Shown here one piece after another: positions 6,515 through 64,000 of a stretch of DNA of 64,000 bases. Every line of letters begins with the position of its first letter. Within the stretch, counting starts at the first letter, position 1. The DNA is from Bacteroidales bacterium (lineage in GTDB: Bacteria; Bacteroidota; Bacteroidia; Bacteroidales; UBA10428). The notes under the pieces were generated by a model. It ran no database searches. It was given only the letters and a program-made list of their open reading frames with translations, and was not told the origin of the DNA. The stretch lies in NCBI GenBank assembly GCA_016926205.1, contig JAFGPB010000099.1:9414-73413 (forward strand). The letters are read 5' to 3'. The position numbers and the translations under genes are program-made.

Positions 6515-6933
6515 TGATGAAAGCTGGAAGCAGAACCATACTGACCCTGGTCTTTTTCATATTTGCCCTGCCGCTTCTGCAGGGACAAAATTATATCGGT
6601 ATGCATAAAGACGATATTGAGAATGTTTTAAGGAGGGATCACCCGCATTTCAGAGCCGATCTTTCAACGGTGAACAACACCTTTAAATATCTTAAGTTCG
6701 TTGACGATGTCAGTGAACAGACCATACTGTTTTTTCTTTCAGATGGTGATGTCTGTACTTATGTGCGCTGGATTTCTGATTATGCAAACCTGAATGACAT
6801 GATCGGAATGCTTGACGGAAACTATAAAAAGATTGGTGAAAAAAGATGGACTTACAGTCAGGATGGAAGACATTATGCGGTGAAACTTGAAGAGGAGGAC
6901 TGGTATTTTACAATCAGCATTCGTGAAGAGTAA
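6514..6933 (+). CDS. Small exported hypothetical protein inserted between moxR and the DUF58 gene
   Basis: The ATG overlaps the moxR stop (TAATG). Signal peptide SRTILTLVFFIFALPLLQGQ. No family recognised. Confidence 0.6.
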   Translation: MMKAGSRTILTLVFFIFALPLLQGQNYIGMHKDDIENVLRRDHPHFRADLSTVNNTFKYLKFVDDVSEQTILFFLSDGDVCTYVRWISDYANLNDMIGMLDGNYKKIGEKRWTYSQDGRHYAVKLEEEDWYFTISIREE

Positions 6934-6951: not shown

Positions 6952-7818
6952 TTGGAAACCAACGAACTATTAAAAAAAGTACGCAAAATAGAGATCAAAA
7001 CCAAAGGTCTTTCCCGGCACATTTTTGCCGGTGAATACCATTCTGCATTTAAGGGAAGGGGAATGGCTTTCAGTGAAGTGCGTGAATACCAGTATGGTGA
7101 TGACATCAGGAACGTTGACTGGAATGTGACGGCACGTTTCAATCATCCTTATGTGAAGATATTTGAGGAGGAACGGGAGCTGACGGTCATGTTGCTGGTG
7201 GATGTGAGCAGTTCTTCAAAATTTGGTACCCGATATCGCTATAAAAACAGTCTGATTGCCGAAATGGCATCAGTCCTTTCATTTTCTGCGATCCAGAACA
7301 ACGATAAGGTAGGCATGATCATGTTTACCGACCGGATCGAAAAATTTATACCACCCAAGAAGGGAAGACAGCATATCCTCAGAATCATCCGTGAACTGAT
7401 CGGATATGAACCTGTCAGCAGCAGAACAGATATATCATTACCCCTTCGAACTCTCGTCAATGTGATAAAAAAACGCAGTATTGCATTTCTTATTTCCGAT
7501 TTCATTGATGAGGGCTTCGAAGAAGCACTGAAGATCGCGAACAGGAAACATGACCTCGTAAGTCTTTGGGTTTATGATCAGCGTGAGACCGAATTGCCGA
7601 ATGTGGGACTGCTTAAGCTTCGTGATGCTGAAACCGGCATGATCAGATGGGTTGATACATCGAATAATGAAGTCAGAGACGGTTATCGCATGAGATACAG
7701 AAAACGGCAGGTGGACATTCATGATCTTTTCAACCGGTATGGTGTCGATCATGTTTCAATTGCCACTCATGAGGATTATGTTCAGCCATTGATGAGGCTC
7801 TTCAAGAAAAGGGCATGA
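6952..7818 (+). CDS. DUF58 (vWA-like) protein of MoxR/Bat operons
   Basis: FKGRGMAFSEVREYQYGDDIRNVDWNVTAR is the DUF58 hallmark. Conserved sequence precedes the first in-frame ATG, so TTG 6952 is the only plausible start (in-frame TAA at 6937). Confidence 0.9.
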   Translation: METNELLKKVRKIEIKTKGLSRHIFAGEYHSAFKGRGMAFSEVREYQYGDDIRNVDWNVTARFNHPYVKIFEEERELTVMLLVDVSSSSKFGTRYRYKNSLIAEMASVLSFSAIQNNDKVGMIMFTDRIEKFIPPKKGRQHILRIIRELIGYEPVSSRTDISLPLRTLVNVIKKRSIAFLISDFIDEGFEEALKIANRKHDLVSLWVYDQRETELPNVGLLKLRDAETGMIRWVDTSNNEVRDGYRMRYRKRQVDIHDLFNRYGVDHVSIATHEDYVQPLMRLFKKRA

Positions 7819-7859
7819 TTTTAATGGGTTTATGATAACAGAATAAGTGCTCAGATCTT

Positions 7860-8855
7860 ATGAATGTGGTCGTGAAAAATATTGTGCTCATCCTGGTCGT
7901 ATGTTACCTGTACGGTGCGGTTTTTCCATACAGCCTGTCTGCTCAGGATATCTCAGTCAGCGCCAGCCTGGATACCAACAGGGCATTGATTGGTGATCAT
8001 CTTGACATGCAGCTGAATGTTTCAAAACCTGAGGATACAAAAATAAGTTTCCCTGAAATTACCGGTGAATTGACTGATAAGATTGAAGTGGTAAACAAAT
8101 CTGTGGTTGATACCCTAAGGATATCCGAAGGATATGAAATGCTTCAGCAGAAACTTGTGATTGCCGTATTCGACACGGGATTTTTTGAGATCCCCCCGCT
8201 GAGTTTTGTTGACCGCTCAGGAGAACTTCCTGACACGATCGAAACATTGCCGGTGGCTCTGGAAATCATCCCGCTTCCTCTGGAAACTGATATCAGGGAT
8301 ATCAAGGCGAACTATAATGCACCGGTAACAATTCTGGAACTTTTGCCTTATCTTATTGCGCTGCTGTTTTCCGTCGCGTTAATATTGTTTATAAGATATT
8401 ATTACAGAAAAAGGTATAAAAAAATGCCTGTTGCGCTTGCCTGCCAGATGCTTGATCCGCCGGATGTTGTTGCATTGAATGAGCTGGAAAAGCTAAGGTC
8501 AGATGCTCCGTGGCTGCACAACAGGATCAAATACTATTATATCAGGCTTTCGGAAATTTTACGGAATTACATTGAACGAAGATTTCAAATTGCAGCACCT
8601 GAAAAGACCACAGAGGAGATTCTTCATACCCTGAAAAACCTGGATGAAGATTCCCGGAACGTTCAATTGTTGTTGCAGATCCTGACGCTGGCGGATCTGG
8701 TGAAATTTGCAAAGGTTGTTCCGGACAGGGAGGAAAATGAAAACCAGATCGGACTGGCGGTCGAGTACATCCGAAAAACGACAGCGGGGACAGTGGAGAA
8801 ATTACCGGGAAACCGAAACATAAAACCGGCAATGCTTTTAGAAACACAAACCTGA
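7860..8855 (+). CDS. Bat-operon membrane protein (BatD-like N-terminal domain, one TM helix, DUF4381-like helical C-terminus)
   Basis: Signal peptide, TM helix LLPYLIALLFSVALILFI, and the C-terminal pattern YYYIRLSEILRNYIERRF.I.A.EKTTEE...L..ADLVKFAK. It occupies the position between DUF58 and batA. Confidence 0.75.
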   Translation: MNVVVKNIVLILVVCYLYGAVFPYSLSAQDISVSASLDTNRALIGDHLDMQLNVSKPEDTKISFPEITGELTDKIEVVNKSVVDTLRISEGYEMLQQKLVIAVFDTGFFEIPPLSFVDRSGELPDTIETLPVALEIIPLPLETDIRDIKANYNAPVTILELLPYLIALLFSVALILFIRYYYRKRYKKMPVALACQMLDPPDVVALNELEKLRSDAPWLHNRIKYYYIRLSEILRNYIERRFQIAAPEKTTEEILHTLKNLDEDSRNVQLLLQILTLADLVKFAKVVPDREENENQIGLAVEYIRKTTAGTVEKLPGNRNIKPAMLLETQT

Positions 8856-8856
8856 A

Positions 8857-9855
8857 ATGACTGACATTCAGTTTGCACATCCGGAATATCTTTATCTTCT
8901 GCTGCTGGTGGTACCGGCAATTGTCTGGTATATTTTTTATCACAACAGGACCCAGCCGGATCTTAAGGTTCCCACGGTTTCACAGCTTACAGAAGTGAGA
9001 AATGGCATCCGCAATTATTTGCGGCATATTCCTTTTGCACTCAGAATGTTGACGGGTATTGCGCTGATTCTTGTACTGGCAAGGCCTCAATCAACCAACC
9101 GCTGGAGTGACGAGTCGGTTGAAGGAATTGACATTATGCTTGCGCTGGATATTTCAGGAAGCATGCTTGCAGCGGATTTTTCCCCGAACCGCATTGAAGC
9201 TTCAAAAGATGTGGCCATTGAGTTCGTATCGGGCAGACCAAACGACAGGATCGGTCTGGTTCTCTTCGGTGGAGAAAGTTTTACGCAATGTCCCCTGACT
9301 ACTGATCATGCGGTACTGATAAATTTAATACAGAAAGTGAATGTTGGCATTGTGGAGGATCAGTCGACTGCAATCGGTCTGGGACTGGCAAACGCCATAA
9401 AACGTCTTAAGGAAAGCACTGGCAGAAGCCGTGTCGTGATCCTGGTGACCGACGGAATGAACAATGCGGGTTCAATTGATCCTTACACGGCAGCGGATAT
9501 AGCCAGAACATTTGGCGTCAGGTTATACACCATAGGCGTGGGCACAAGGGGTATGGCACCGGTCCCCTTTCAGGATCGTTACGGCAATATTTATTATCAG
9601 CAGGCGGAAGTGGAAATCGATGAGGAAATGCTCGGGGAAATTGCAAGGCTCACGGACGGTGAATATTTCAGGGCTACCAACAATCAAAAGCTGAGAGAAA
9701 TATATGATCAGATCAACAATCTTGAAACGACAAAAATTGATGTGAGACAGTACTCGAGAAAATATGAGGAATTCAGGATTTTTGGAATCTGGGCATTGTC
9801 GTTCCTGATGCTTGAGATCATTATAAGAAATGCATACTTAAGAAGTATTGTATAG
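8857..9855 (+). CDS. batA: vWA-domain aerotolerance protein BatA
   Basis: N-terminal TM helices, MIDAS motif LALDISGSM, VILVTDGMNNAG, and a C-terminal TM helix. Confidence 0.9.
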   Translation: MTDIQFAHPEYLYLLLLVVPAIVWYIFYHNRTQPDLKVPTVSQLTEVRNGIRNYLRHIPFALRMLTGIALILVLARPQSTNRWSDESVEGIDIMLALDISGSMLAADFSPNRIEASKDVAIEFVSGRPNDRIGLVLFGGESFTQCPLTTDHAVLINLIQKVNVGIVEDQSTAIGLGLANAIKRLKESTGRSRVVILVTDGMNNAGSIDPYTAADIARTFGVRLYTIGVGTRGMAPVPFQDRYGNIYYQQAEVEIDEEMLGEIARLTDGEYFRATNNQKLREIYDQINNLETTKIDVRQYSRKYEEFRIFGIWALSFLMLEIIIRNAYLRSIV

Positions 9856-10880
9856 TGAATAACTTCAGATTCGAGCACATAGAATATCTCTGGCTGCTTG
9901 CAGTGATTCCGGTCCTTGCAGGATTGTACATGGTCATTTCGATCATGAAAAAACGAAATCTGAAGGATTTTGGCGAACCTGTGCTGTTGAAAGGTATGAT
10001 GCCGGATTTTTCAGCATTCAGGATACATCTCAAGTTCCTGCTGATGTTGCTGGCAACTTCTCTGATTATCGTTGCGCTTGCCGGACCACAATTTGGTTCC
10101 AAAATTGTGGATGTCAGGCAAAAAGGACTTGAGATCATCATCTCGCTGGATGTTTCAAACAGCATGCTGGCCGAAGACATCAGACCCAACCGTCTTGAAA
10201 GGGCAAAACAGGAATTGTCGAGACTGATGGACAGACTGGAAAATGATCGTGTGGGACTTATAGTCTTTGCCGGTGAAGCGTATACGCAGATACCCATTAC
10301 AAACGATATTCTTTCCGCCAAAATGTTCCTTTCAGGAATCAGTACTGATATGGTATCCAGACAGGGAACTGCAATCGGTTCAGCGATCGAACTGGCAACA
10401 AAATCATTCAGTCAGGATCAGGATGTCGGAAAAGCGATCATTGTGATCAGCGACGGAGAAAACCATGAGGGTGACGTACTGGAAGCATGCATGGAGGCGG
10501 TTGAGCGAAAAATCAGTGTTTTTGCGATCGGAATGGGGCAGGATCAGGGAGCCAGGATCCCGGTCAGTTCCGCCCCTTATAACAGGGATTATTTAAGGGA
10601 CAGGGACGGGAATTTCATAATATCGGAACTGAATGAACAGATGCTTCTGCAGATTGCTGCTGCCGGAAACGGGAAATATTATCGGGCTTCATTACCAGGG
10701 ATGGGCTTAAATGACATTCTCGATCAGCTTGAAAAACTGGAACAGGCTGAAATGACATCGCAGGTTTATGCGGAATATGAGGAGCAGTTTCCGTATTTCA
10801 TATGGACCGCCTTGTTTATACTGTTACTTGACCTGTTCATACTTGAAAAGAGAAATCAATGGTTGAAACAATTGAAGTAA
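9855..10880 (+). CDS. batB: vWA-domain aerotolerance protein BatB
   Basis: MIDAS motif SLDVSNSM, IVISDGENHEG, and TM helices at both ends. There is a 1-nt overlap with batA. Confidence 0.9.
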   Translation: MNNFRFEHIEYLWLLAVIPVLAGLYMVISIMKKRNLKDFGEPVLLKGMMPDFSAFRIHLKFLLMLLATSLIIVALAGPQFGSKIVDVRQKGLEIIISLDVSNSMLAEDIRPNRLERAKQELSRLMDRLENDRVGLIVFAGEAYTQIPITNDILSAKMFLSGISTDMVSRQGTAIGSAIELATKSFSQDQDVGKAIIVISDGENHEGDVLEACMEAVERKISVFAIGMGQDQGARIPVSSAPYNRDYLRDRDGNFIISELNEQMLLQIAAAGNGKYYRASLPGMGLNDILDQLEKLEQAEMTSQVYAEYEEQFPYFIWTALFILLLDLFILEKRNQWLKQLK

Positions 10881-10895
10881 TTTGTTGTGAGAGGA

Positions 10896-11630
10896 ATGAT
10901 AAGGCTAAACATATTTATGCTGCTGTTCATGGTCAGTGCCGCGGCATATGCACAGGTTGAACAGAAATATCTGCGCCATGGCAACAGGCATTACAGAGAT
11001 CATGAATACCAGGAAGCAGAAATTCATTACCGGAAAGCCCTCGAAAAGGATTCGGAATCGGTCAGGGCGAATTATAATCTGGGAAATTCAATGTATAAGC
11101 AGGACCAGTATGAAGCTGCGGCTTCACGATACGATATGCTTCTGAAACAGTCCGATGACAGTATTGAACGGGCAAAATATTTTTATAACCTGGGGAATTC
11201 CTTTTTTAAATCCCGGAAATACGCAGAAAGTGTTACAGCTTTTAAAAATGCTCTGCTGCTCAGACCGGGTGATATGGATGCAAAACACAACCTGCAAATG
11301 GCACTGAGGATGTTGCATAAAGAAAACCAGACCGGCAGTCAGGGTCAGCAAAATGAAAGTGACCAGGAAAATCAGGACGGTGGCGGTTCTGAACAGCAAC
11401 AGCAGCAGCAGGGGGATGAGGATCAGAACATGCAGGACCGTGCACAGAATGAGCAATATGAAGATTCAGACGATCGTTCGGAACTTCCTGAGCCTCAACG
11501 GGGACAGATATCTCCCGAAGATGCGGAACGTCTGTTACAGGCTCTTGAAAATGAAGAGAAAGATGTTTTAAAGAAGGTGCAGGAACGACAGATGCAAATA
11601 AAAAAAGTTCCGGTTGAAAAGAACTGGTGA
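10896..11630 (+). CDS. batC: TPR protein BatC with an acidic/Q-rich tail
   Basis: Signal peptide MIRLNIFMLLFMVSAAAYAQ (the ORF is open from GTG 10887), TPR units, then the QGQQNESDQENQDGGGSEQQQQQQGDEDQ low-complexity region. Confidence 0.85.
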   Translation: MIRLNIFMLLFMVSAAAYAQVEQKYLRHGNRHYRDHEYQEAEIHYRKALEKDSESVRANYNLGNSMYKQDQYEAAASRYDMLLKQSDDSIERAKYFYNLGNSFFKSRKYAESVTAFKNALLLRPGDMDAKHNLQMALRMLHKENQTGSQGQQNESDQENQDGGGSEQQQQQQGDEDQNMQDRAQNEQYEDSDDRSELPEPQRGQISPEDAERLLQALENEEKDVLKKVQERQMQIKKVPVEKNW

Positions 11631-11675
11631 TTCACCTGTTCTTGCCTGGACAATGAACAATAATTATACTTGACC

Positions 11676-13490
11676 ATGCGGACATTTATGGGTATCATGC
11701 TGACCGTTATATTCAATACCTGTGGTTTTGCACAGGAGGTTGAATTTACAGCATCTGCCACTCCGGATGTTTTGCATGTGGGTGAGCAGTTCAACCTGAT
11801 CTATAGTTCAAATCATCAGATCAGTGACCTGGATCTTCCCGAGATCCGTGAATTTGAATTCCTCGGAGGTCCCAGTCAAGGACACAGCCAGAGCATTTCT
11901 TCGGTGAACGGAAAGATCACCAGAACATCAACATATCAGTATACCTATTTTTTCAGGGCGCTAAAGGAGGGTGAATTTACCATTCCGGCAGCCACTGCAA
12001 AAATCGGGAACAGGGAATACCAGGCGAATCCGGTTTCGATTGAAGTCGTACCTGCCCAGACGACACCTTCTTCAAGGCAAAACCAGCCTGATGGAAATGA
12101 TACGGAACAACCGGAGGAAATCGATGACAACAGCCTGTTCATCAGATTCATGGTCGATAAGACTGAAGCTTACATCGGAGAACAGATTGCGGTTACCATT
12201 AAATTGTATTCCAAGGTTAATTTATCAGGCGTTGACCAGGCTTTCAAAGGACCCGATTTTACCGGTTTTTTCATTGAACCGGTGGAAGTTATGCCATTAA
12301 GAAGTCTTGAACGTGAAGTTTACAACGGAGACATATACGGAACAGGGATCCTCAGACAGATGGTGATCATTCCTCAGCATTCAGGAGACATCACCATAGG
12401 ATCCTTTGACGTAGATGTTTCAGTGCGCCAGGAAGTCAGAAGACGGATTACGGATTCATTTTTTGATGATTTTTTCTTTCCCGATGTGCAGAATGTGCCG
12501 TATACTTTGTCAAGCGGACCGGTCAGGATCAGCGTGAAACCACTTCCGGATGACGCTCCGGATTCATTTGCGGGCGCAGTGGGTAATTTCAGGCTTTCCT
12601 CCTCGATAAGCGGGACTGAGACCATGACCAATGAACCGCTCACACTGAAATATATGATTTCCGGAACTGGCAACCTCAAACTGATGGATGAACTGACTGT
12701 TGACATTCCTGCAGGACTGGAAAGGTATGATCCGGTGATCAGTACAAATCTGGACAATGCCAGGTCAGGGACCAAGACTTATGAATATCTGATCATTCCG
12801 CATAACGCAGGAATTTATTCAATCCCTCCCGCAGAATTCACTTACTTTGATCCTGCATCCCGGGAATACCGAACCCTGTATTCACAATCCTATACGGTAA
12901 ATGTCCGGAAAGGGGAATGGGACAGCCTCTCCCATGCGGTTTCAGGTGTCTATAAGGAAGATGTTCAGTTGCTTAACGAGGATATTCATTATATAAAAAC
13001 CAGATCCATTCGGCTGTCTGACAAGGATTCATATTTTGCCGGATCATGGTTGTTCTATATCTTGTCAGGTGCTGTACTCATCATGTTCATCGTCCTGCTG
13101 ACGGTCCGCAATCGTTTGAAGGCTTATAATGCTGATGTTGTTCAGGTGAGAAAGCGCAGGGCTGATAAATATGCGCTGAAAAGGCTGAAGCATTGCGGGG
13201 GTCTCATAGAACAGGGGAAACATACAGAATTTTATGACGTTTTGCTTGTGGCTTTATGGCGTTATCTGAGTGACAAGCTCAACATACCGCTGTCAGGGTT
13301 ATCCAGGGAAACAGCAATGGAACAACTGAAAATACGCAGCATTGAAGAAGAACTGATCCGTGAATTCTTTAGAATAACGGGTGAATGTGAGGTCGCACGA
13401 TATACCCCCGTAGCGGAACACACTGACATTAAGCAGATATATCAGGATGCGCTGGATGTGATATCAAAAATTCAACAAAAGCTGAAATGA
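11676..13490 (+). CDS. batD: BatD (oxygen-tolerance family) protein
   Basis: Signal peptide, repeated beta-sandwich modules (F....A.P..V.VGE.F), a late TM helix LFYILSGAVLIMFIVLL, and a helical tail. The ORF is open from TTG 11670. Confidence 0.85.
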   Translation: MRTFMGIMLTVIFNTCGFAQEVEFTASATPDVLHVGEQFNLIYSSNHQISDLDLPEIREFEFLGGPSQGHSQSISSVNGKITRTSTYQYTYFFRALKEGEFTIPAATAKIGNREYQANPVSIEVVPAQTTPSSRQNQPDGNDTEQPEEIDDNSLFIRFMVDKTEAYIGEQIAVTIKLYSKVNLSGVDQAFKGPDFTGFFIEPVEVMPLRSLEREVYNGDIYGTGILRQMVIIPQHSGDITIGSFDVDVSVRQEVRRRITDSFFDDFFFPDVQNVPYTLSSGPVRISVKPLPDDAPDSFAGAVGNFRLSSSISGTETMTNEPLTLKYMISGTGNLKLMDELTVDIPAGLERYDPVISTNLDNARSGTKTYEYLIIPHNAGIYSIPPAEFTYFDPASREYRTLYSQSYTVNVRKGEWDSLSHAVSGVYKEDVQLLNEDIHYIKTRSIRLSDKDSYFAGSWLFYILSGAVLIMFIVLLTVRNRLKAYNADVVQVRKRRADKYALKRLKHCGGLIEQGKHTEFYDVLLVALWRYLSDKLNIPLSGLSRETAMEQLKIRSIEEELIREFFRITGECEVARYTPVAEHTDIKQIYQDALDVISKIQQKLK

Positions 13491-57073: not shown

Positions 57074-58043
57074 TCTTCTTCTTTTTTGCCAGATGCTCAA
57101 TAAGCCATATCATACAGTAACCGGCTATCATCAGAAACAGGCAGAAGACTACCTCAAAACTGACTGTACCAGGTATATACCATTCATAACCCATGATTTT
57201 TTCGCTGCTGTCCTGTAATTTAAGTGCAATTTCATGCTTCCATGGCCACAATATCCCGAGTGAACCAAAAATAAAACCTGTCAGTATGGCAATGGTCAGG
57301 TCCCTGTAATTTTTAAAGATCCAGGCCAGTAAGCGGGAAAAAGCGATCAGTCCCAAAAAAGCTCCCAGCAATAAAGGAATGAGCACCTGAAAGTCCATAT
57401 TCTTTACGGAATGGATCATGACAAGCTCATAATTGCCCATCAGTAGCAATACATAAGAACCTGATAATCCGGGAAGTATCATGCTGCAAATGGCTACTAT
57501 GCCACACAGGAATACATACCAGATGGCATTGTTCTCACTGGCAGGTCTGAGCACAACCGTTACGAAAACGGCTATCAATGTGCCGGCGAAAAAAATCAGG
57601 ATCACACCGGCTGACCACTTTTTTATCTTGCGTCCGACAAAATAAACAGAAGCAAGGATAAGACCGAAAAAGAAGGCCCATACAAAATGGGGATAATCGC
57701 GAAACAAAGGTTCAAGAACAAAGGCCAGAGTATATATACCGGCTGCAGCCCCCCCGAAAACAACAACAAGGAACAGGAAACCGGTCCTTTCCTGAAATTC
57801 CCTGATCCGGCCGGTAAACAACATTTTTAACGCAGTGAGGTCAATTGATTTAATTGACACTATCAAATCTTCAAATATTTCTGTGATCAGGGCTATGGTA
57901 CCGCCGGAGACACCCGGAATGATATTTGCGGCTCCCATACCGATACCTTTGAGGAACAATATTGCGTATTTCATGAATGCTGCCTTCATGTGTGTACCTG
58001 ATACTAAACGGATGATCTGCCGGTATGCGGCAATTTTCTCCAA
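57060..58043 (-). CDS. DUF368-family membrane protein
   Basis: GMGAANIIPGVSGGTIALI, with a second LPGLSGSYVLLLMG half. The true start is probably an internal ATG (57989 or 57974). The 3' end overlaps the convergent EamA gene by 14 nt. Confidence 0.8.
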   Translation of the reverse strand: MEKIAAYRQIIRLVSGTHMKAAFMKYAILFLKGIGMGAANIIPGVSGGTIALITEIFEDLIVSIKSIDLTALKMLFTGRIREFQERTGFLFLVVVFGGAAAGIYTLAFVLEPLFRDYPHFVWAFFFGLILASVYFVGRKIKKWSAGVILIFFAGTLIAVFVTVVLRPASENNAIWYVFLCGIVAICSMILPGLSGSYVLLLMGNYELVMIHSVKNMDFQVLIPLLLGAFLGLIAFSRLLAWIFKNYRDLTIAILTGFIFGSLGILWPWKHEIALKLQDSSEKIMGYEWYIPGTVSFEVVFCLFLMIAGYCMIWLIEHLAKKKKIIDS

Positions 58044-58220
58044 ATATAATTAAACCTGCGAATTTTGGTTTCTTCGGACATGCAATCAACCATTATGTGA
58101 TATCAGGATGAAAGGTTTTGCACGGATCCCTGAAAAAATGGTGCTGGTGTTTCTATGTTCCGTCTAAATAGAGTAATTTAACCGAATCAACAGCATATGT
58201 TTTCAATGATTTCGTTTTAA

Positions 58221-58763
58221 TTGAAAAATTATAAAAATAAGGAAATTTCATCCCTGAAATCAGGGGATATCGCTGCATATGAGTCGTTGTTCAGGCAATA
58301 TTATGCTGCACTTGTATTGTTCGCTGTAAAATATGTCTCCGATATCGATATTGCCCGTGAAATCGTTCAGGATTTTTTTGTCAGACTTTATGAGAAAAGA
58401 CTTACGATATCTATTGATGTATCCATAAAATCATATCTGTACCGTTCGGTATATAATTCCTGCATAAACTATTTGAATCAACGCAACATCCACGAAAAGC
58501 ATGTCAATAACATGAGAATTGAAAATGAACTGGATGAGGATGCCGAAAAGGAAATCATGACCCTTGATTTGCAACACAAAATATATGCAATCATTGAAGA
58601 ATTGCCTGTTAAATGCCGGCAGATTTTCAAGATGAACCGGTTTGAAGGCCTTAAGAATGAGGAAATTGCCCAAATGCTGAACCTGTCAAAACGCACCGTT
58701 GAGACGCAAATCAGCAAGGCATTGAAGATATTGCGGAAAAGACTTGCAGGATTTGAGATTTGA
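58221..58763 (+). CDS. ECF-type RNA polymerase sigma-70 factor
   Basis: Region 2 (AYESLFRQYY..L..FA.KYV.D...AREIVQDFF..L) and region 4 (LP.KCRQIF.MNRFEGLKNEEIAQMLNLS.RTVETQISKAL). Region 2 precedes the first in-frame ATG, so the TTG at 58221 (directly after an in-frame TAA) is the likely start. Confidence 0.9.
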   Translation: MKNYKNKEISSLKSGDIAAYESLFRQYYAALVLFAVKYVSDIDIAREIVQDFFVRLYEKRLTISIDVSIKSYLYRSVYNSCINYLNQRNIHEKHVNNMRIENELDEDAEKEIMTLDLQHKIYAIIEELPVKCRQIFKMNRFEGLKNEEIAQMLNLSKRTVETQISKALKILRKRLAGFEI

Positions 58764-58911
58764 CTGGTTTTATCTTTTGTGATAATATAAAAACATTTGT
58801 TTGATCATGAATAACGCAGATTGTAACCATTTAAGATCCATTAAATTGGAGATTTGAATTATTACATGAATAAGTGTATTTGTTAATTTATATGTCATAA
58901 TATAATGAGTC

Positions 58912-59895
58912 ATGGATGTACTTAAAATGCCTTACAAAGCAATCATAAAAATGCTTGAAAATAAGGCAAAAAACATTGAATATCAGACGTATATGAATCA
59001 GATCAACAACGAATCTAACAGGACTGATGAACAGGCGAGAATCCGTAAGATCTGGAATGAGTCTGAGAATGCCCGAAAGTTTGAGCAGATCAATTTGGCG
59101 GGCGACTGGAAGACAGTGAGGTCAAGGATGCGTGTGACCATGTCTGCTGGTTCGGAACAGATTGCGTTTCCGATGGTTCTGTCCCGGATAGCTGCAGTAC
59201 TGATCATTGCCGTTGGTCTCGGTTATGGTTTTTATAAAGTTCTTACCAGTCAGAAATTTCAGACGGTTAAAATCTATACATACAGGGCTGATCGTAATGT
59301 TGAAGAAGTTTATATGCCGGATGGCTCGGTAATAAATCTGAACGTTGGTTCATCACTTGTATACCGGGATGATTTCAACCGTTCAAGTCGTGATGTGATT
59401 CTTGAGGGAGAAGGACTGTTTGATGTGGTACCCGGTCACACTTTACCCTTTAGGGTATATACCGGAGAATCTGTCGTTGAAGTTACGGGTACCACTTTCA
59501 GCATTTATGAAAAAGATGGAGTTGTTAAAGTCTCTGTCATTGACGGTACGGTAACATTATCACCCGTTGATAACAGCAACAGCCAGATCCAGATTTCCAA
59601 AAACCAGTCGGGTTACATGTTGGCCAATAAAGAGCTTAAAATCAGGGATGGAATCGATGTCAACAACCTGTCCTGGAAAACAAGACTTCTTATATTTGAT
59701 GAAACACCGCTTGATTCAGCGTTGGTTGATATTGCACATTATTTCCGGAAGAACCTTTCCATTGAAGCTGAAGTTACTGAGAAAGTAACTGCCGAATTTG
59801 AGAACCAACCCTTGAGTGAAATACTCGATGAACTGGAACAGGTTGCCGGACTTGTTTTTGACACTACCGGAGGATCACTCTCGGTCAGAAGATAA
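58912..59895 (+). CDS. FecR-family anti-sigma factor
   Basis: Cytoplasmic N-terminus, TM helix IAAVLIIAVGLGYGFY, periplasmic FecR domain (V.LPDGS.I.LN.GS.L.Y......R.V.LEGE..F.V), and a C-terminal DUF4974-like segment (F...PL..AL..I...F.). Confidence 0.85.
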   Translation: MDVLKMPYKAIIKMLENKAKNIEYQTYMNQINNESNRTDEQARIRKIWNESENARKFEQINLAGDWKTVRSRMRVTMSAGSEQIAFPMVLSRIAAVLIIAVGLGYGFYKVLTSQKFQTVKIYTYRADRNVEEVYMPDGSVINLNVGSSLVYRDDFNRSSRDVILEGEGLFDVVPGHTLPFRVYTGESVVEVTGTTFSIYEKDGVVKVSVIDGTVTLSPVDNSNSQIQISKNQSGYMLANKELKIRDGIDVNNLSWKTRLLIFDETPLDSALVDIAHYFRKNLSIEAEVTEKVTAEFENQPLSEILDELEQVAGLVFDTTGGSLSVRR

Positions 59896-59907
59896 CCTTC
59901 ACCGATT

Positions 59908-61545
59908 ATGATCCTGCGGGAAACATACCAACGCATCTTTCCCGTCCTTTTTTCGCTGTTCCTGCTGGTTGGCACACAAGTCCGGGCCCAGCAAAAAAGC
60001 ATTCTCGAACGGGAGGTAAACCTGTCACAAACGACAGGCGAGATCGACGTTTTGCTGAAAGAGATCAGTCGGAAGGCGAATTTCTCCTTCACGTATACTT
60101 CACAGATACAGGTTCACAGAATTGCGTCCGTATCGCAAAAGAGGCAAAGTGTCGGTAAGCATCTGGGTGAGATTTTTCGCTTTGACAGCATTCAGTTTGT
60201 TGAACAATACAATAAGGTCCTGCTAATTCCTTTAACAAGGAAGTCTGAGACGGTTGCCGATTACAGGTTGATAAAAGGCCTTGTAATTGATGCCAGGAAC
60301 CGCAAACCCCTGTCCTTCGCAAATATCTTTCTCCTGAATAAAAGCATCGGAACCATATCCAATGCTTCAGGCAGGTTTGAACTTAAGCTTAAAACTTATG
60401 AAGATGATGATACCATCGGAATTTCTTTCATCGGATATAAAATGTACAAAGCTCCATTGGCAACTGTGGATACTGCAACACTTATCGTCAGATTATCCTC
60501 TGAAATGGTTCATATTGATGAAGTTATTGTCAAACCCATGGATCCGATATACATTCTTACCAAGGCCATAGAGCAGATACGTGTAAACTATGATCACCAG
60601 CAAAACGTATTAACCGCTTTTTACAGGGAGACCACACGGCAGGACGGAAACAACATATCATCTTCCGAAGCGGTTATCAATATATTCAAAGAGGCATATA
60701 CTTCAACCAGGCTGGATCAGGTCAGGTTGTTCAAGGGGAGAAAATGGATCAATACCGCCGACAAGGCATATATTGATCTGATTGTGCAGGGTGGACTTTA
60801 CAACAGCTTCCAGCTTGACATTGTAAAAAATTTACCCACTTTTCTCGATGCAGATTATTTTGCCCTTTATGAGTATAATGTCGAAAGAATTATCCTTCAT
60901 TATGAAAGGCCGACCTATGTAATATCCTTTGACCAGCGGGAGGATGTGATATATCCCTGCTATAAAGGTCAGCTTTATATTGATGTTGAATCCCTTGCCA
61001 TTGTGGGTGCATCTTTTGAAATGAGTGAAAAGAACCTGAATTACAATACCCGGGACTATGTGAAGAAAAGTCCGAGGACCATCCGTGCCAATCCGACGGG
61101 TGTGTTTTATGAAGTATACTACAGATATTACGGCAACAAATGGAATCTGAGCAACGCCAGAAGTGAAATACAGATACGTATAAGGCAGAGAAGAGATCAG
61201 GACCAGGATAAGTTCAACAGCATTTTTGAATCTGTTTCGGAATTTGTCATTACGAGTAAAGACACAACTGATGTGAGCCGGTTCAGATTTAACGAAACTT
61301 CCAAACCCAGGGACATTCTCGTTGAACAGATCGGAGAGACAGATATCGAATTCTGGGGCAGCGAGAATATCATCATACCGGAGGAACCCATAGAAAGAAC
61401 CATATTGCGCCTGGGTCGAAGAAACAACTTATTTACAGAAGAAGAGATCAGGCTGATCAAGATCGAGGAAGAAAAAGAGGCAGATCGCTACAAGAAAGAT
61501 ACAGACGAAAATAATGAGGTTATTGACCTAATAATGAAGGAATGA
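59908..61545 (+). CDS. Exported protein with an STN-like signalling domain + CarboxypepD_reg domain + ~330-aa uncharacterised domain; no plug or beta-barrel
   Basis: Signal peptide FPVLFSLFLLVGTQVRAQ. STN-like segment at 60010-60234 (VNLSQTTGEIDVLLKEISRKANFSFTYTS...VLLIPL). CarboxypepD_reg at 60268-60531 (IKGLVIDARNRKPLSFANIFLLN...GRFELK...IDEVIV). The remainder is not TBDT-like and ends in a charged tail. Confidence 0.7.
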   Translation: MILRETYQRIFPVLFSLFLLVGTQVRAQQKSILEREVNLSQTTGEIDVLLKEISRKANFSFTYTSQIQVHRIASVSQKRQSVGKHLGEIFRFDSIQFVEQYNKVLLIPLTRKSETVADYRLIKGLVIDARNRKPLSFANIFLLNKSIGTISNASGRFELKLKTYEDDDTIGISFIGYKMYKAPLATVDTATLIVRLSSEMVHIDEVIVKPMDPIYILTKAIEQIRVNYDHQQNVLTAFYRETTRQDGNNISSSEAVINIFKEAYTSTRLDQVRLFKGRKWINTADKAYIDLIVQGGLYNSFQLDIVKNLPTFLDADYFALYEYNVERIILHYERPTYVISFDQREDVIYPCYKGQLYIDVESLAIVGASFEMSEKNLNYNTRDYVKKSPRTIRANPTGVFYEVYYRYYGNKWNLSNARSEIQIRIRQRRDQDQDKFNSIFESVSEFVITSKDTTDVSRFRFNETSKPRDILVEQIGETDIEFWGSENIIIPEEPIERTILRLGRRNNLFTEEEIRLIKIEEEKEADRYKKDTDENNEVIDLIMKE

Positions 61546-61566
61546 TTATTATAAAACATCACAGTC

Positions 61567-64000
61567 ATGATAAAGTTGACCAATAAGTATACATTTCTGT
61601 TGTTTGTGTTTACAGCATCCATTTTTGTTTTATCATTTTCTCCGGGCAAACAGGAAGATGGATTTATTAACGGGCTGAAGGCTATGCTGAAACGTTATAA
61701 TGATTTGTTCTGCTCGGAAAAGGCCTTTCTGTTTACAGACAGGTATCTCTATCGGCCGGGCGAAGTTATTTGGTTCCAGGGTTTTGTTTCATCCGGACCG
61801 TCTGGAGGGACCGGTTCTTACAGTGAGGATTTTTATATCAAATTATTGAACAACAATGGTGAAGAAACAGCATTTCGTCGTTATCCTCTGGTGAACAATA
61901 TGACCACCGGTAATTTGAGCCTGCCGAAGACATTGATACCGGGCAAATATCACCTGGTAGCATACACAAGCTGGATGAAAAACCAACCCACCGTAGAAGC
62001 ATTCCGCAAAGAAATCCTGATCACCAAATACTTCGACAGGAGACTGAAAGTGGAAGTCCTTTACGAAGAACTTTTCTATTATCCCGGAGACAGTCTGCAT
62101 GCCTATATCAGCATTTCCGATCATGAAGGGTCACCATTGACACGAACAGATTTTGACTATTCGGTCGCGACCTTCCGTAAAGATTTGATTAAGGGGACGG
62201 CTGAAACGGATGCACAGGGAAATGGAGCGATTTCCGTTATCCTTCCTGAAACAGATGAGATACTTTTGCTGAATATTCAATTGAAAAGAAGAAAGAACTT
62301 AGGGACTTATTCCGTTTATATACCCATGTCCTCTTCTGTTCCGGCAATATCTTTCTTTCCTGAGAGCCGGAAACTGATCAGAAATCTGGATACAAGAGTC
62401 GCTTTTAAGGCAAACGATCGTTTTGGATTTCCCATGATGATCGAAGGGGAAATTGTGGACCGGTCGGGCAACAAAATTGCAGATGTTCAATCGAATGCAT
62501 CTGGTTTGGGAATGTTCTCGTATATTCCTGACAGCGAGAGTACTTTTTTGAAAATTATCATTCCGGAAGGCGTGGACAGGCTGTATCCTTTGCCTGCCGC
62601 TCAGGAGCACGGCGTGATCATGAATCTGTCTGAGATGGATGATGATTCTGCAACATTCACCATCCAATCATCTGAAGCGGCTCCTGAGAATTGCTACCTG
62701 GTGGCTGTAATGAACAGTCAGATCGTATGGAGCAAAAGATTACATTTTAACGGAAGCTGCATTGTTGGCCTGCCAATTCATGATCTGGATGAAGGAATTC
62801 TGCAGCTTGATGTTTTTGACACAGAGGGCAATGTCATGGCGGAAAGGCTTCTCGGAATACATGATAAAAATACTGATCTTTCCATACATTCCAACCGGAG
62901 CGTTTACGGGAATCGTCAACGGGTTACATTATCACTGGAATATAACGGTCCGTCTGAATATGTCGACCTGGCTTTGTCGGTTTCACTCGATCAGATGGCA
63001 GAACACGCCAAGATGATGAGTTTCGGACAGGTATTGCAGGGTATACCATGTGATACAACCCGAATCATTTCACTCTCTGATAAACAAATATCTGATCTGG
63101 AAATCCTTACGTCAGATCACAGGATTGTTGACTGGAACAGGGTGCTCACTCTTACTGACAAATCAGAACAGTATTTCAATCAGGACGGGATTTCCGGGGT
63201 AGTTGTCGATAAAAAGGACAATCCTTCACAATTGGCGAAAGTCAGGATTACTTCGATTCCAAGTTACAGATCATTTGAAACACAAACTGATGATCAGGGT
63301 CAGTTCTGGGTTCGGTTTGGATCAGACATTATTGATTTCAACTATCTTAATGTTGAAGCTTACGATGCAACTGGCAAAGCAAGTATGAAAACAGTAATTG
63401 ATTATGAGTATTCGGAGAAACTAAAGGAAGATTTCAACAGGATGAAGAGAAACACTGACTATGAAAAAATCACAGATATCGTTGCCTATGGTGATCCTGA
63501 TCTCATTTATTCCCTCAGGTACGGATCCGGAAGATTCAGAAGGACCGCATCGATCATGCGCAAGAAATATGACCCATACCATTACAGGGATTATTCAGAT
63601 GTTATGGACGTAATAAGAGATATCAGGGATTATGACCTGGTAGGGAATAAGATCATTTTCAAGGATATTGATGAGAACTTCCTGGAGAACATTCATCAGA
63701 AATCAGCTCTGATCGTGATAAACGGGGTATTATGGGGCGATCAGGTTGATATAATGAGTTCGATAGCGCCTTCAGATATCACCAATCTGGTGATATCGAG
63801 TGCGCCAAGCGACATCCACCGGTACACGCCCGTTAATTTTGCAGCGGTGGTTGAGATAACAACCATCCAGGGGATGTACAGATACCAGAAACGACCGATT
63901 CAGTTTATCAGGGATCTGATCAATCCGGAACATGACTTTTATACACCGGACTACTCGTTTGAGAGTCTTGCATCGCCTGATAACCGCAAAACGCTTTACT
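61567..64000 (+). CDS. 5' part (811 codons) of a large exported MG2 (alpha-2-macroglobulin-like) / CarboxypepD_reg / Plug-like protein; runs off the window
   Basis: Not in the ORF track because no stop codon occurs. I read frame 1 codon by codon from ATG 61567 to 64000 and found no stop. Signal peptide present. MG2-type motif FLFTDRYLYRPGEVIWFQGFV (61726-61788), CarboxypepD_reg-like ISGVVVDKKDNP..VRI...TDDQGQFWVRF (63190-63318), and Plug-like ALIVINGVLWG...IAPSDITNLVI...AAVVEITTIQG (63706-63873). Confidence 0.8.
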   Translation, partial: MIKLTNKYTFLLFVFTASIFVLSFSPGKQEDGFINGLKAMLKRYNDLFCSEKAFLFTDRYLYRPGEVIWFQGFVSSGPSGGTGSYSEDFYIKLLNNNGEETAFRRYPLVNNMTTGNLSLPKTLIPGKYHLVAYTSWMKNQPTVEAFRKEILITKYFDRRLKVEVLYEELFYYPGDSLHAYISISDHEGSPLTRTDFDYSVATFRKDLIKGTAETDAQGNGAISVILPETDEILLLNIQLKRRKNLGTYSVYIPMSSSVPAISFFPESRKLIRNLDTRVAFKANDRFGFPMMIEGEIVDRSGNKIADVQSNASGLGMFSYIPDSESTFLKIIIPEGVDRLYPLPAAQEHGVIMNLSEMDDDSATFTIQSSEAAPENCYLVAVMNSQIVWSKRLHFNGSCIVGLPIHDLDEGILQLDVFDTEGNVMAERLLGIHDKNTDLSIHSNRSVYGNRQRVTLSLEYNGPSEYVDLALSVSLDQMAEHAKMMSFGQVLQGIPCDTTRIISLSDKQISDLEILTSDHRIVDWNRVLTLTDKSEQYFNQDGISGVVVDKKDNPSQLAKVRITSIPSYRSFETQTDDQGQFWVRFGSDIIDFNYLNVEAYDATGKASMKTVIDYEYSEKLKEDFNRMKRNTDYEKITDIVAYGDPDLIYSLRYGSGRFRRTASIMRKKYDPYHYRDYSDVMDVIRDIRDYDLVGNKIIFKDIDENFLENIHQKSALIVINGVLWGDQVDIMSSIAPSDITNLVISSAPSDIHRYTPVNFAAVVEITTIQGMYRYQKRPIQFIRDLINPEHDFYTPDYSFESLASPDNRKTLY

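Follow-up and report, generated by a model that had tools for sequence, protein, structure and literature searches.

The 64,000-nucleotide stretch of Bacteroidales DNA analysed here (the window) carries an ECF sigma/FecR pair that is probably wired to a soluble exported STN+NTE protein, P3, without an outer-membrane transporter. We put at about 0.6 the probability of this reading, in which the cassette is of the cell-surface-signalling type and a soluble periplasmic P3 replaces the usual TonB-dependent transducer. The P3 family, from Bacteroidia, is large, conserved and uncharacterised (849 or more clusters at 50% identity, E≤1e-30), so sigma/FecR signalling can probably do without a transport barrel. 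Four genes, for the sigma factor, FecR, P3 and a further protein, P4, lie on the forward strand, with 12 nt between fecR and P3 and 21 nt between P3 and P4; open reading frames and gaps are all as described in an earlier analysis of the letters alone (the sequence-only reading). No barrel gene was found linked to the cassette, and no SusD-like gene is present in it.

Sigma factor, FecR and promoter-like motif

The first gene (58221..58763, + strand) encodes a 180-aa ECF sigma factor of the Bacteroidetes FecI-like type, which scored 173 bits against TIGR02985 Sig70_bacteroi1 (cutoff 126.4) and also matched Sigma70_r2 and r4_2. The second (58912..59895, +) encodes a 327-aa FecR-type anti-sigma factor, above the cutoff for both PF04773 (57.8 bits) and PF16344 FecR_C (28.3 bits). 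Its single hydrophobic segment, at about aa 84–108 with the hydrophobicity peak at aa 84–102, predicts a single-pass protein with a cytoplasmic N-terminus and with the FecR and FecR_C domains in the periplasm. In the V-x-G-T-x-F motif of the FecR domain, the G, T and F were invariant across all 79 of the 79 cassette FecR sequences aligned. We take the Gly193-Thr194 pair of this motif (59488..59493, +) to correspond to the Gly-Thr pair at which regulators of the FecR/FoxR type cleave themselves, and to be a putative cleavage site here.

P3 accompanies this pair in its relatives. An STN-bearing P3 stood directly after fecR in 76 of 77 genomic loci, a sigma gene lay upstream of fecR in all 75 related loci with enough flank, and the sigma/FecR/P3 synteny persists in relatives with between 88% and 28% identity; the genetic linkage of P3 to the pair is strict even in very divergent relatives. 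Two cassette types were distinguished: type A is sigma-FecR-P3-P4, as in the window, and type B is P3short-sigma-FecR-P3long, P3short being an STN-less paralogue upstream of the sigma gene.

Thirteen nucleotides upstream of the fecR ATG stands a two-block promoter-like motif, TAAGTG-N15-ATGTCWTA, which reads TAAGTGTATTTGTTAATTTATATGTCATA in the window (58871..58899, +). This was its sole match in the 64 kb (0 expected). In 32 type-A loci it occurred exactly once per locus, with position and strand unchanged, its two blocks conserved and the flanks variable. It is probably an ECF-type promoter of fecR-P3-P4, and P3 is probably part of the regulon since it lies, with fecR, downstream of this motif.

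The position of both genes behind the motif would also suit a P3 that is made under sigma control and acts, through its STN domain, only to stabilise or titrate FecR, by feedback or protection from proteolysis; the signal would then enter elsewhere, for example at FecR or via an unlinked protein. TonB-dependent transducers reportedly bind the anti-sigma factor in the absence of signal and shield it from proteolysis (PMC11637429). However, a pure stabiliser needs neither the large conserved ligand-binding-type C-terminal domain nor the conserved Ton-box-like motif of P3, and the strict STN-FecR adjacency is the same as in true transducers. We consider this reading unlikely.

Domains of the P3 head

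P3 (59908..61545, +; 545 aa) is an exported, barrel-less protein with an STN domain, an NTE domain and a probably LolA-like body, and the presumed partner of FecR. The signal peptide at its N-terminus (aa 1–27, 59908..59988, +), a helix at residues 3–29 in the AF2 model with a hydrophobicity peak at aa 7–28, is its sole hydrophobic segment; as read from the sequence, cleavage would occur at ...QVRA/QQ. The single Cys of P3 is at aa 351 and no lipobox was found in the protein; a signal peptide of this kind points to a periplasmic location.

The STN (signalling) domain occupies aa 35–109 (60010..60234, +). With the threshold relaxed to E≤10, Pfam STN still gave no match to this segment of P3. 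In hhalign, the type-A segment matched the equivalent segment of distant type-B relatives (97.1% probability, E=7e-11, 81 columns), several of which exceed the Pfam STN cutoff (40.6, 38.2 and 40.7 bits compared with 28.4). The AF2 model of the segment (pLDDT about 87–90) retrieved in Foldseek the PupB NTSD (6ovk_B, TM 0.70) and the FecA NTD (2d1u, TM 0.55), each with a probability of 1.0 and an rmsd of about 2.4 Å, and the family profile gave weak in-register matches in the PDB to PilQ N0 and the PupA signalling domain. It is exactly this segment that is missing from the STN-less P3 paralogue.

A SusC-type NTE domain follows (aa 122–208, 60271..60531, +). It scored 54.5 bits against PF13715 CarbopepD_reg_2, matched TIGR04056 at model positions 3–83 and aligned in Foldseek with the SusC NTE 9hfj (TM 0.81, rmsd 1.8 Å); profile matches of the P3 family to SusC NTEs went down to E=7e-12. 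Across the STN+NTE head, P3 is colinear with proteins annotated as SusC/RagA or TonB-dependent receptors (28–29% identity, >90% coverage, E down to 5e-19), and no plug or barrel was found in P3. The sequence-only reading had placed an STN-like segment at 60010–60234 and a CarboxypepD_reg domain at 60268–60531, as a SusC-type head on a protein without plug or barrel, and this description is borne out.

Where SusC has its Ton box, P3 carries I203-D-E-V-I-V-K209 (60514..60534, +), kept as I.Ei.VkP in type A, IplQEVIIR in the long and L.eitirP in the short type-B proteins. In Bt1763 the Ton box is VDEVVV/DEVVVTG, immediately after the NTE (PMC7782687). We regard the P3 motif as Ton-box-like and as a candidate TonB site; alternatively, since the final positions of the Pfam NTE model overlap it, it could be no more than the terminal strand of the NTE domain.

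P4 and the two cassette types

The window holds the first 811 of the 862 residues of P4 (61567..64000, +), whose gene continues past it. A database protein of 862 aa (P0121) is identical to P4 across all 811 residues, and at an 88% identical syntenic locus (L001) a convergent Fe-ADH gene follows the P4 gene; P4 thus ends beyond nt 64000 without a barrel. Neither P3 nor P4 contains a 22-strand barrel, since there is no room for one in either protein. In P4 we also found no thioester motif CxEQ and saw no lipobox.

The AF2 model of P4 (pLDDT 80.8, pTM 0.72) matched complement C3, C4 and C5 and bacterial alpha-2-macroglobulins (5a42, 4u48) in Foldseek with E down to about 1e-20. The MG2 motif noticed earlier was recovered at aa 52–141 (PF01835, 38.5 bits, cutoff 32.8), within an array of MG-type beta-sandwiches (aa 50–474, 61714..62988, +) that aligned with the C3 beta-chain (about 480 columns, TM about 0.48); relatives of P4 match MG4 and Big_1. 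P4 shares this N-terminal array (Pfam MG2) with E. coli ECAM/YfhM, Salmonella A2M and complement C3. Unlike them, it has only 862 aa, no thioester domain or CxEQ, and an NTE-like sandwich and a plug-like remnant after the array.

These last two segments agree in part with what the sequence-only reading had claimed. Its second CarboxypepD_reg domain stands as an NTE-like beta-sandwich in the AF2 strands (aa 542–611, 63190..63399, +), but PF13620 was sub-threshold (25.6 bits, cutoff 32.3; matched in 37 of 44 relatives). Its Plug-like segment (aa 682–773, 63610..63885, +) aligns in position with the Pfam Plug of protein P0168 (25.5 bits, cutoff 23.9), and a mixed profile matched RagA/SusC plugs at E=4e-10, but an orthologue-only profile gave zero plug matches and hhalign against Plug-positive distant relatives, though in register, gave only P=0.005. 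A weak, transitive assignment, the least secure of those for P3 and P4, would make this segment a divergent plug remnant.

P3 and P4 might be the halves of a split barrel-less transducer-like complex, with STN, NTE and Ton box on P3 and NTE and plug on P4, possibly docking on an unlinked outer-membrane barrel. The sequence-only reading had suggested that the two proteins might work together. The two genes, only 21 nt apart, are adjacent in 31 loci, P4 lying downstream; P4 has the NTE-like sandwich and plug-like remnant, and the order sigma-antisigma-P3-P4 mimics sigma-antisigma-SusC-SusD. In contrast, 40 type-B loci keep the sigma/FecR/P3long core without P4, distant P4 relatives occur with neither sigma/FecR nor P3 nearby (Pedobacter, for example, has them in tandem), the evidence for a plug is weak and the cassette has no linked barrel gene. 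We find such a split rather improbable. Type B, which occurs in Parabacteroides distasonis too, is the larger branch; no locus surveyed had both P4 and the STN-less P3 paralogue, and the latter was never in the FecR-adjacent slot. P4 is thus not a general or obligatory partner, since it is confined to type A and its distant relatives lie away from sigma/FecR; it resembles an output transcribed along with the cassette rather than a central component of the signalling.

The P3 body, related systems and a possible mechanism

After the head, P3 continues into an open beta-domain (aa 213–450, 60544..61257, +) with 9–10 long antiparallel strands and helices in the AF2 model, whose pTM is only 0.45 for P3. 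The tail (61258..61542, +) consists of a stretch of low confidence (aa 451–489), conserved nonetheless and holding an invariant FWG.EN motif, and a long charged helix (aa 495–544); the last ~30–40 residues are type-A specific, type-B proteins stopping about 30–40 residues earlier. Foldseek matched the body to 3g3l, DUF1329 4z48, P. gingivalis LolA3 9tp6 and E. coli LolA 6f3z, and also to lipovitellin and ApoB (E 2e-5 to 7e-3, probability 0.8–1.0, low TM). When 75 P3-family sequences were scanned, Pfam LolA_like was matched weakly in 2 (0.005) and DUF5686 weakly in 5 (best 9.5e-7). The domain is probably LolA-like. The protein 3g3l, a putative membrane-associated protein of Bacteroides fragilis and one of the best matches (E=2e-5), aligns by its N-terminus with the NTE part of the P3 family profile. 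3g3l, DUF5686 and P3 are all NTE-plus-beta-domain proteins of Bacteroidota; unlike P3, the first two have no STN or known sigma/FecR link, and the similarity is low (TM 0.22).

Long antiparallel strands, together with some porins in the Foldseek list, could also indicate a small outer-membrane beta-barrel and make P3 a compact membrane receptor. This is very unlikely: porin probabilities were 0.06–0.28 versus 0.8–1.0 for LolA-type/lipid-binding folds, invariant charged residues are numerous in the strands (R240, E241, E254, K261, K276, R278 and D304 among them), and the protein ends in a charged helix (...LIMKE), not in an aromatic OMP terminus. That P3 is a decayed, functionless remnant of a SusC-like gene, to which its homology with SusC transducer heads might point, is effectively refuted by conservation, as hundreds of divergent lineages have intact full-length ORFs, with many invariant residues in every domain and a distinct conserved C-terminal domain, a pattern indicating purifying selection on the family.

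If P3 takes the place of a transducer, its STN domain would dock on FecR at the C-terminal domain in the periplasm, like the STN of FecA or SusC, and its open beta-domain would bind a hydrophobic periplasmic ligand such as a lipid, the acyl chain of a lipoprotein or an intermediate resembling lipid A. Binding of this ligand would lift the FecR block and trigger FecR proteolysis, possibly assisted by a TonB pull on the Ton-box-like strand. Free sigma would transcribe fecR-P3-P4 from the conserved TAAGTG-N15-ATGTC promoter, the type-A output being P4, an exported thioester-less alpha-2-macroglobulin-like protein; this output side is not general, since the larger type-B branch lacks P4. Both steps have precedents: TonB drives the release of the C-terminal domain of FecR (PMC12036975), and the LolA-like lipid sensors RseB and MucB gate anti-sigma cleavage (PMC7400510).

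The cassette shares with Bacteroides PUL sigma/anti-sigma/SusC-like systems and E. coli FecI-FecR-FecA a TIGR02985-type sigma, a FecR with FecR_C and the order sigma, anti-sigma, STN-bearing partner; P3 shares with SusC/RagA the colinear STN-then-NTE head and the Ton-box-like motif after the NTE. Unlike SusC and FecA, P3 has no plug or 22-strand barrel, so the cassette has no outer-membrane channel or substrate passage to report, and its body is a probably LolA-like soluble domain. The cassette may respond to some signal other than the passage of a substrate through a barrel. Unlike the PUL systems, it has no SusD-like gene. The statement that no example had been characterised was too strong, and the concept of a barrel-less STN partner is already known: VreA (PA0674) of PUMA3 in Pseudomonas aeruginosa is a barrel-less STN-type receptor that works with an ECF sigma factor and a FecR-like regulator (PMC2729926). 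VreA-VreI-VreR thus resembles the cassette in having a small receptor-like STN protein without beta-barrel alongside such a pair. VreA differs from P3 in its size (about 23 kDa), its TonB/TolA-C-terminal-like second domain and its lack of an NTE, and PUMA3 is proteobacterial with the order receptor-sigma-regulator; the known likeness of VreA to P3 is the STN fold only.

For the C-terminal domain of P3 we propose RseB/MucB (sigma-E/AlgU envelope stress) as a functional analogue, a periplasmic LolA/LolB-like half-barrel that senses lipid or lipid A and gates proteolysis of the single-pass anti-sigma RseA/MucA (PMC7400510). The analogy is one of fold, from a moderately supported assignment for P3; RseB/MucB, unlike P3, has no STN, NTE or Ton box, and its anti-sigma is RseA-type, not FecR-type. 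Another non-canonical route from the Bacteroidota envelope to an ECF sigma has a receptor barrel fused to the anti-sigma factor, whereas the cassette has no barrel and its STN partner is a separate soluble protein. Finally, a Parabacteroides RNA-seq table contains two genes that are both about 4-fold down (PMC12893687); by product names and locus-tag spacing, these two are candidates for P3short and P3long.

Genes of the cassette and the signalling head of P3

The cassette opens with an ECF sigma gene (58221-58763, 180 aa, TTG start), followed by fecR (58912-59895, 327 aa), the gene for P3, the 545-aa exported protein (59908-61545, beginning 12 nt past fecR), and the gene for P4, the protein with an MG2 motif, which begins 21 nt past P3 at 61567 and is open to the window edge, with 811 codons inside the window. 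These coordinates come from a six-frame ORF list and agree with the four ORFs and spacings of the sequence-only reading. The sigma factor is a Bacteroidetes-type ECF sigma, FecI-like (TIGR02985, 173 bits for a cutoff of 126.4), that also matches Sigma70_r2 and r4_2. FecR carries PF04773 (57.8 bits) and FecR_C, PF16344 (28.3 bits), both over cutoff, and is a single-pass protein: its sole hydrophobic segment spans roughly aa 84-108, and its FecR and FecR_C domains are periplasmic. Its Gly193-Thr194 pair, which we take to be the autoproteolysis site of FecR/FoxR-type regulators, lies in a V-x-G-T-x-F motif (59488-59493) that is invariant in 79 of the 79 cassette FecRs aligned; from its sequence this motif is probably such a site. 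Except for a weakly STN-like FecR C-terminus, no other protein bearing the STN signalling domain and no SusC transducer was found in the window or in the 80 related loci that we compared.

Looking at hydrophobicity, P3 and P4 each have an N-terminal signal-peptide-like segment only, and P3 has no lipobox since its single cysteine is distant from the N-terminus. The sole Pfam match of P3 was CarbopepD_reg_2 (PF13715, aa 122-208, 54.5 bits), hereafter NTE, which it shares with the N-terminus of SusC/RagA proteins; indeed, the stretch aligns to positions 3-83 of the 981 positions of TIGR04056 (SusC/RagA), with 41.3 bits for a cutoff of 368, and a full-length match including plug and barrel was not obtained. 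Neither Plug nor TonB_dep_Rec was matched in P3 by Pfam, and AlphaFold2 (AF2) gave an open beta-domain instead. P3 is thus without the plug and 22-strand barrel of a TonB-dependent transducer.

The AF2 model of P3, built on a 71-sequence alignment, had an overall pLDDT of 72 and a pTM of 0.45, with pLDDT values of 77-90 for the two N-terminal domains. It comprises a beta-alpha-beta type domain (aa 36-108), a beta-sandwich (aa 120-196), a region of 9-10 long antiparallel strands and accompanying helices (aa 213-449), a stretch of low confidence (aa 451-489) and a long charged helix (aa 495-544). In the window this helical tail occupies 61390-61542 (aa 495-545); the final 30-40 residues or so of the highly charged helix (EEEIRLIKIEEEKEADRYKKDTDENNEVIDLIMKE) are found in P3 of type-A cassettes only (sigma-FecR-P3-P4, as in the window) and are missing from the relatives of type B (P3short-sigma-FecR-P3long). 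When the model was compared with the PDB by Foldseek, the sandwich superposed on the SusC NTE crystal structure 9hfj (TM 0.81, rmsd 1.8 A), and the first domain matched the PupB signalling domain in its complex with PupR (6ovk_B, 6ovm_B; TM 0.70, rmsd 2.4 A, probability 1.0) and that of FecA (2d1u, TM 0.55).

An STN fold had been proposed for the first domain (60010-60234) from the sequence. The Pfam STN model itself was negative on the window P3, even with the segment excised and at E<=10. In three distant relatives the corresponding segment scored 40.6, 38.2 and 40.7 bits, over the model's cutoff of 28.4 bits, and 32 of 75 sequences (the window P3 and 74 representatives) gave STN matches at E<=0.01. 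Alignment by hhalign of the type-A with the type-B segment alone reached a probability of 97.1% (E=7e-11, 81 columns). Against the PDB, a diverse P3-family profile gave weak in-register matches, PilQ N0 at E=0.035 and the signalling domain of PupA at E=0.25, and the type-A profile A1 retrieved SusC NTE domains and spurious Ig chains only. As the link to STN-positive relatives and the structural matches to PupB and FecA agree, the proposal stands, and we accept the first domain as a predicted, divergent STN domain.

The order of the two domains was then compared with that of real transducers. A tblastn search of plasmid records with a type-B STN-NTE head (L079, a type-B locus, 6034-6621) gave single-piece alignments over more than 90% of the query to genes of Parabacteroides, Bacteroides and Chondrinema whose annotation is SusC/RagA or TonB-dependent receptor (28-29% identity, E to 5e-19). 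Because these alignments are colinear, the STN-then-NTE order of P3 is that of SusC-type transducers; they contradict the statement that the NTE precedes the STN domain in all cases (PMC7782687). Directly after the NTE, P3 carries the motif I203-D-E-V-I-V-K209, which the family keeps in each of its three forms. It sits where Bt1763 has its experimentally defined Ton box (VDEVVV / DEVVVTG), directly after the NTE (PMC7782687), and also lies within the last part of the Pfam model of the NTE. By sequence the motif is Ton-box-like and a putative contact for TonB.

The C-terminal domain of P3 has no Pfam family and, with profile A1, no sequence-level match in the PDB. Its best Foldseek matches were lipid- or acyl-chain-binding open beta-structures throughout: a Bacteroides fragilis protein of unknown function (3g3l, E=2e-5), DUF1329 (4z48, E=1e-4), LolA3 of Porphyromonas gingivalis (9tp6, E=1e-3), Escherichia coli LolA (6f3z, E=7e-3), and lipovitellin, ApoB and MTP. 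Five of the 75 P3 family sequences scanned are weakly positive for DUF5686. Two database proteins, P0172 (901 aa) and P0303 (627 aa), each contain two stretches that match the P3 profile, and their second halves give weak Pfam LolA_like matches; these sequences suggest that P3-like modules were duplicated in tandem or fused.

Relatives of P3, synteny and the P4 protein

A word-indexed search returned 351 P3 relatives, which among the 120 listed were 52-100% identical and near-full-length or fragmentary, and an exhaustive search gave at least 849 clusters at 50% identity (E<=1e-30), whose proteins measure either about 510-545 or about 417-436 aa. One genome per species was also scanned, which yielded 150 P3-encoding stretches; the best 80, all from Bacteroidales or Bacteroidia MAGs, were taken for synteny, and all their ORFs were searched with profiles of the four window proteins. 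Among these best 80 of 150, loci whose P3 is at least 42% identical to that of the window are of type A, with P4 adjoining P3 in 31 of them, and those at about 30% identity are of type B (40 loci). P3short has its NTE at once after the signal peptide, lacking exactly the STN segment, and P4 and P3short occur together in none of these loci. In the same set, fecR lies immediately upstream of the STN-bearing P3 in 76 of 77 loci, and the sigma gene is upstream in all 75 loci with enough flank, within 300 nt of fecR in 73. The four-gene survey called for by the sequence-only reading thus upheld the sigma-FecR-P3 linkage. A 796-aa Fulvitalea 'carboxypeptidase-like' protein encoded after sigma and FecR genes was considered as a second barrel-less type and dropped as an ordinary transducer, since it has Plug and a barrel trace.

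We then studied P4. The window P3 and an identical database entry (P0001) are absent from the contig index, and genomic context was taken from L001, an 88%-identical syntenic locus, and P4 from the database protein P0121. The latter has 862 aa, the first 811 identical to the window P4, and the gene for the 863-aa orthologue in L001 has a convergent Fe-ADH gene behind it. Full-length P4 is therefore without a barrel, settling how the gene ends past nt 64000. Its AF2 model (pLDDT 80.8, pTM 0.72) shows MG-type (macroglobulin-type) sandwiches (aa 50-474), a further sandwich (aa 542-611), a helical region, an alpha/beta segment (aa 679-773) and a final sandwich (aa 809-860). The MG2-type motif read from the sequence was recovered by PF01835 (38.5 bits, over 32.8), and Foldseek found an alpha-2-macroglobulin-like MG array, with matches to C3, C4, C5, TEP1 and bacterial alpha-2-macroglobulins (ECAM) at E ~1e-20; the first 480 or so residues gave a TM of about 0.48 with the C3 beta-chain. 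P4 shares this array with alpha-2-macroglobulin/thioester proteins but not their thioester domain: no CxEQ motif is present among the four cysteines of the 862-aa protein, and no A2M or thioester-domain Pfam match was found in its orthologues.

The Plug-like segment proposed for P4, examined at aa 682-773, fared less well and is the weakest part of the sequence-only reading. In its favour, a mixed profile of P4 orthologues and distant relatives matched RagA/SusC plugs (E=4e-10), and Pfam Plug was positive in one of 44 P4 relatives, the distant P0168, where it maps to aa 682-761 of P4. Against it, the orthologue-only profile had no match to this segment in the PDB, hhalign of the orthologues with the distant relatives in this segment was in register with a P of 0.005, and Pfam Plug gave nothing useful on the window P4 or its excised sub-sequences at E<=10. 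As a rival to a P3 that acts by itself, P3 and P4 might form a split complex; P4 adjoins P3 in the 31 loci and the 40 type-B loci are without it, so P4 cannot be retained as the general partner. Genes past type-B cassettes are variable, and distant P4-like proteins are not beside sigma/FecR genes. The synteny of both cassette types thus points to a conserved core of sigma, FecR and STN-bearing P3, with P4 as a clade-specific addition.

A type-A locus, L033 (1-1551, 4350-10134), has an extra divergent P4-like gene upstream of sigma besides the usual downstream one. In Pedobacter sp. KR3-3 (L081), three tandem P4-like paralogues (1-888 on the minus strand, 7001-9736 and 9819-12551 on the plus strand) have no sigma or FecR gene nearby. 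With an MG array, NTE-like and plug-like segments, about 840-910 aa and no barrel, they are a separate uncharacterised family of barrel-less 'plug-domain' proteins.

Candidate regulatory motifs

A two-block motif, TAAGTG-N15-ATGTCWTA, lies just upstream of fecR (58871-58899, plus strand) and is the sole match in the 64-kb window, where none is expected by chance. In the sigma-fecR gap of type-A loci it takes the fixed-spacing form TAAGTGaAtTT-N6-ttAAATGTCwTAT, 13-25 nt ahead of the fecR start, and is present exactly once in each of 32 loci, always in this position and orientation. Its AAC-type -35 block and GTC-type -10 block resemble ECF promoters, and judging from this pattern it is the probable sigma-dependent promoter of fecR-P3-P4, a by-product of the analysis that supplies a candidate promoter motif for the sigma subgroup of the window cassette. 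A generic scan of 57900-64000 for sigma-70 promoters and terminators did no better than shuffles.

A sub-clade of type-B loci has a related motif, TGTGTAACTTTACC.TCCC.GTA, in the P3short-sigma gap; for type B, a candidate promoter motif is TGTGTAACTTT...GTAC. The same gap contains a long conserved inverted repeat, AAAGCGCTGTCTG ... CAGACAGCGCTTTTT, whose loop of about 45 nt holds the TGTGTAACTTTACC.TCCC.GTA motif (L057, a type-B locus, about 7183-7290; also L061, L062, L068, L071, L073 and L079). Candidate roles for this repeat are those of a terminator, promoter, operator or RNA switch.

Proposed role of P3 and comparison with known systems

In the accepted view, FecR-type trans-envelope signalling accompanies TonB-dependent transport as a by-product: a ligand binds the barrel, the Ton box is exposed, TonB pulls and FecR is released. 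The P3 family breaks this rule, since a large and ancient family of Bacteroidia keeps STN, NTE and a Ton-box-like strand, all the periplasmic signalling parts, without the barrel. With FecIRA/SusC-type signalling the cassette shares a FecI-like sigma, a single-pass FecR with FecR_C and an adjoining STN-bearing partner, but the defining plug-and-barrel transducer is missing.

In the canonical pathway the Ton box of FecA becomes exposed when ligand binds; the signalling domain then relays the motor action of TonB to the C-terminal fragment of FecR, and FecR proteolysis begins once this fragment is released (PMC12036975). We propose that P3 would act as a soluble receptor in the periplasm and bind FecR through its STN domain, a contact with FecR_C that is backed by synteny. 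Its C-terminal domain would bind a periplasmic ligand, probably hydrophobic; ligand binding, possibly together with TonB, would release FecR, and the freed sigma would then raise fecR-P3-P4. We put the probability that P3 is a barrel-less STN partner of FecR at roughly 0.6. As a rival to this role, P3 could be a mere stabiliser of the system or, being encoded behind the candidate promoter, one of its outputs. Two other explanations were rejected, namely that P3 is itself a small barrel of the outer membrane and that it is a pseudogene or remnant.

The functional analogy for the receptor model is with RseB and MucB, half-barrels of the LolA type that detect lipid A and control cleavage of the anti-sigma factor (PMC7400510). 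NTE domains are also present on some B. thetaiotaomicron TonB homologues, where they are suspected to aid formation of the TBDT-TonB complex (PMC10350073). In a narrower form of the receptor model, which we consider unlikely, P3 would represent a class of barrel-less, possibly TonB-coupled periplasmic sensors of Bacteroidia, whose LolA-like domain would watch for hydrophobic intermediates of the envelope (mislocalised lipoproteins, lipid A/LPS or other lipids, for instance) and report them to FecR via the STN-NTE-Ton-box head. It would then be a functional counterpart of RseB/MucB made of transporter signalling parts, serving an envelope-integrity response and not nutrient uptake, and the enigmatic SusC NTE would gain a role open to study apart from any transporter. 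More generally, if P3 signals, the head would be a portable module that can couple to periplasmic ligand-binding domains, which would widen the sensing range of Bacteroidota ECF/FecR systems and offer a simple soluble system for SusC NTE function and STN-FecR coupling.

The sequence-only reading knew of no characterised example of such an arrangement. This was too strong, because a barrel-less STN receptor is established in VreA of the Pseudomonas PUMA3 system, which joins STN to a TonB/TolA-like domain (PMC2729926). Like VreA, P3 places STN on a small exported barrel-less protein beside an ECF sigma and a FecR-like regulator; by description they differ in phylum, gene order and C-terminal fold, that of P3 matching LolA-type folds and not TonB/TolA in Foldseek, and P3 adds the NTE and the Ton-box-like strand. 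The P3 family is a large, uncharacterised family of Bacteroidia, and the barrel-less STN receptor as a concept is already known.

The proposed role of P3 is testable because the cassette is present in a cultured gut species, Parabacteroides distasonis, as a type-B cassette (NZ_OY725779.1, 2157-7449) in which PGAP names the sigma 'RNA polymerase sigma-70 factor' and FecR 'FecR domain-containing protein', and the P3-family profile matches the long and short P3 proteins with E=8e-88 and E=2e-81, respectively. The protein accessions of the P. distasonis cassette are WP_005856515.1, WP_005856513.1, WP_009276021.1 and WP_009276022.1. We found no functional study of the family in the literature, and the P3 product name in one paper only, in an RNA-seq table (PMC12893687). 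There, two genes three locus tags apart, NQ542_RS07340 and NQ542_RS07355, carry two P3 product names and are both about 4-fold down in the tested condition; by product names and tag spacing they may be P3short and P3long of such a cassette, and the pattern would then fit co-regulation. In NZ_OY725779.1 the gene immediately upstream of the cassette is oxyR-like ('hydrogen peroxide-inducible genes activator').
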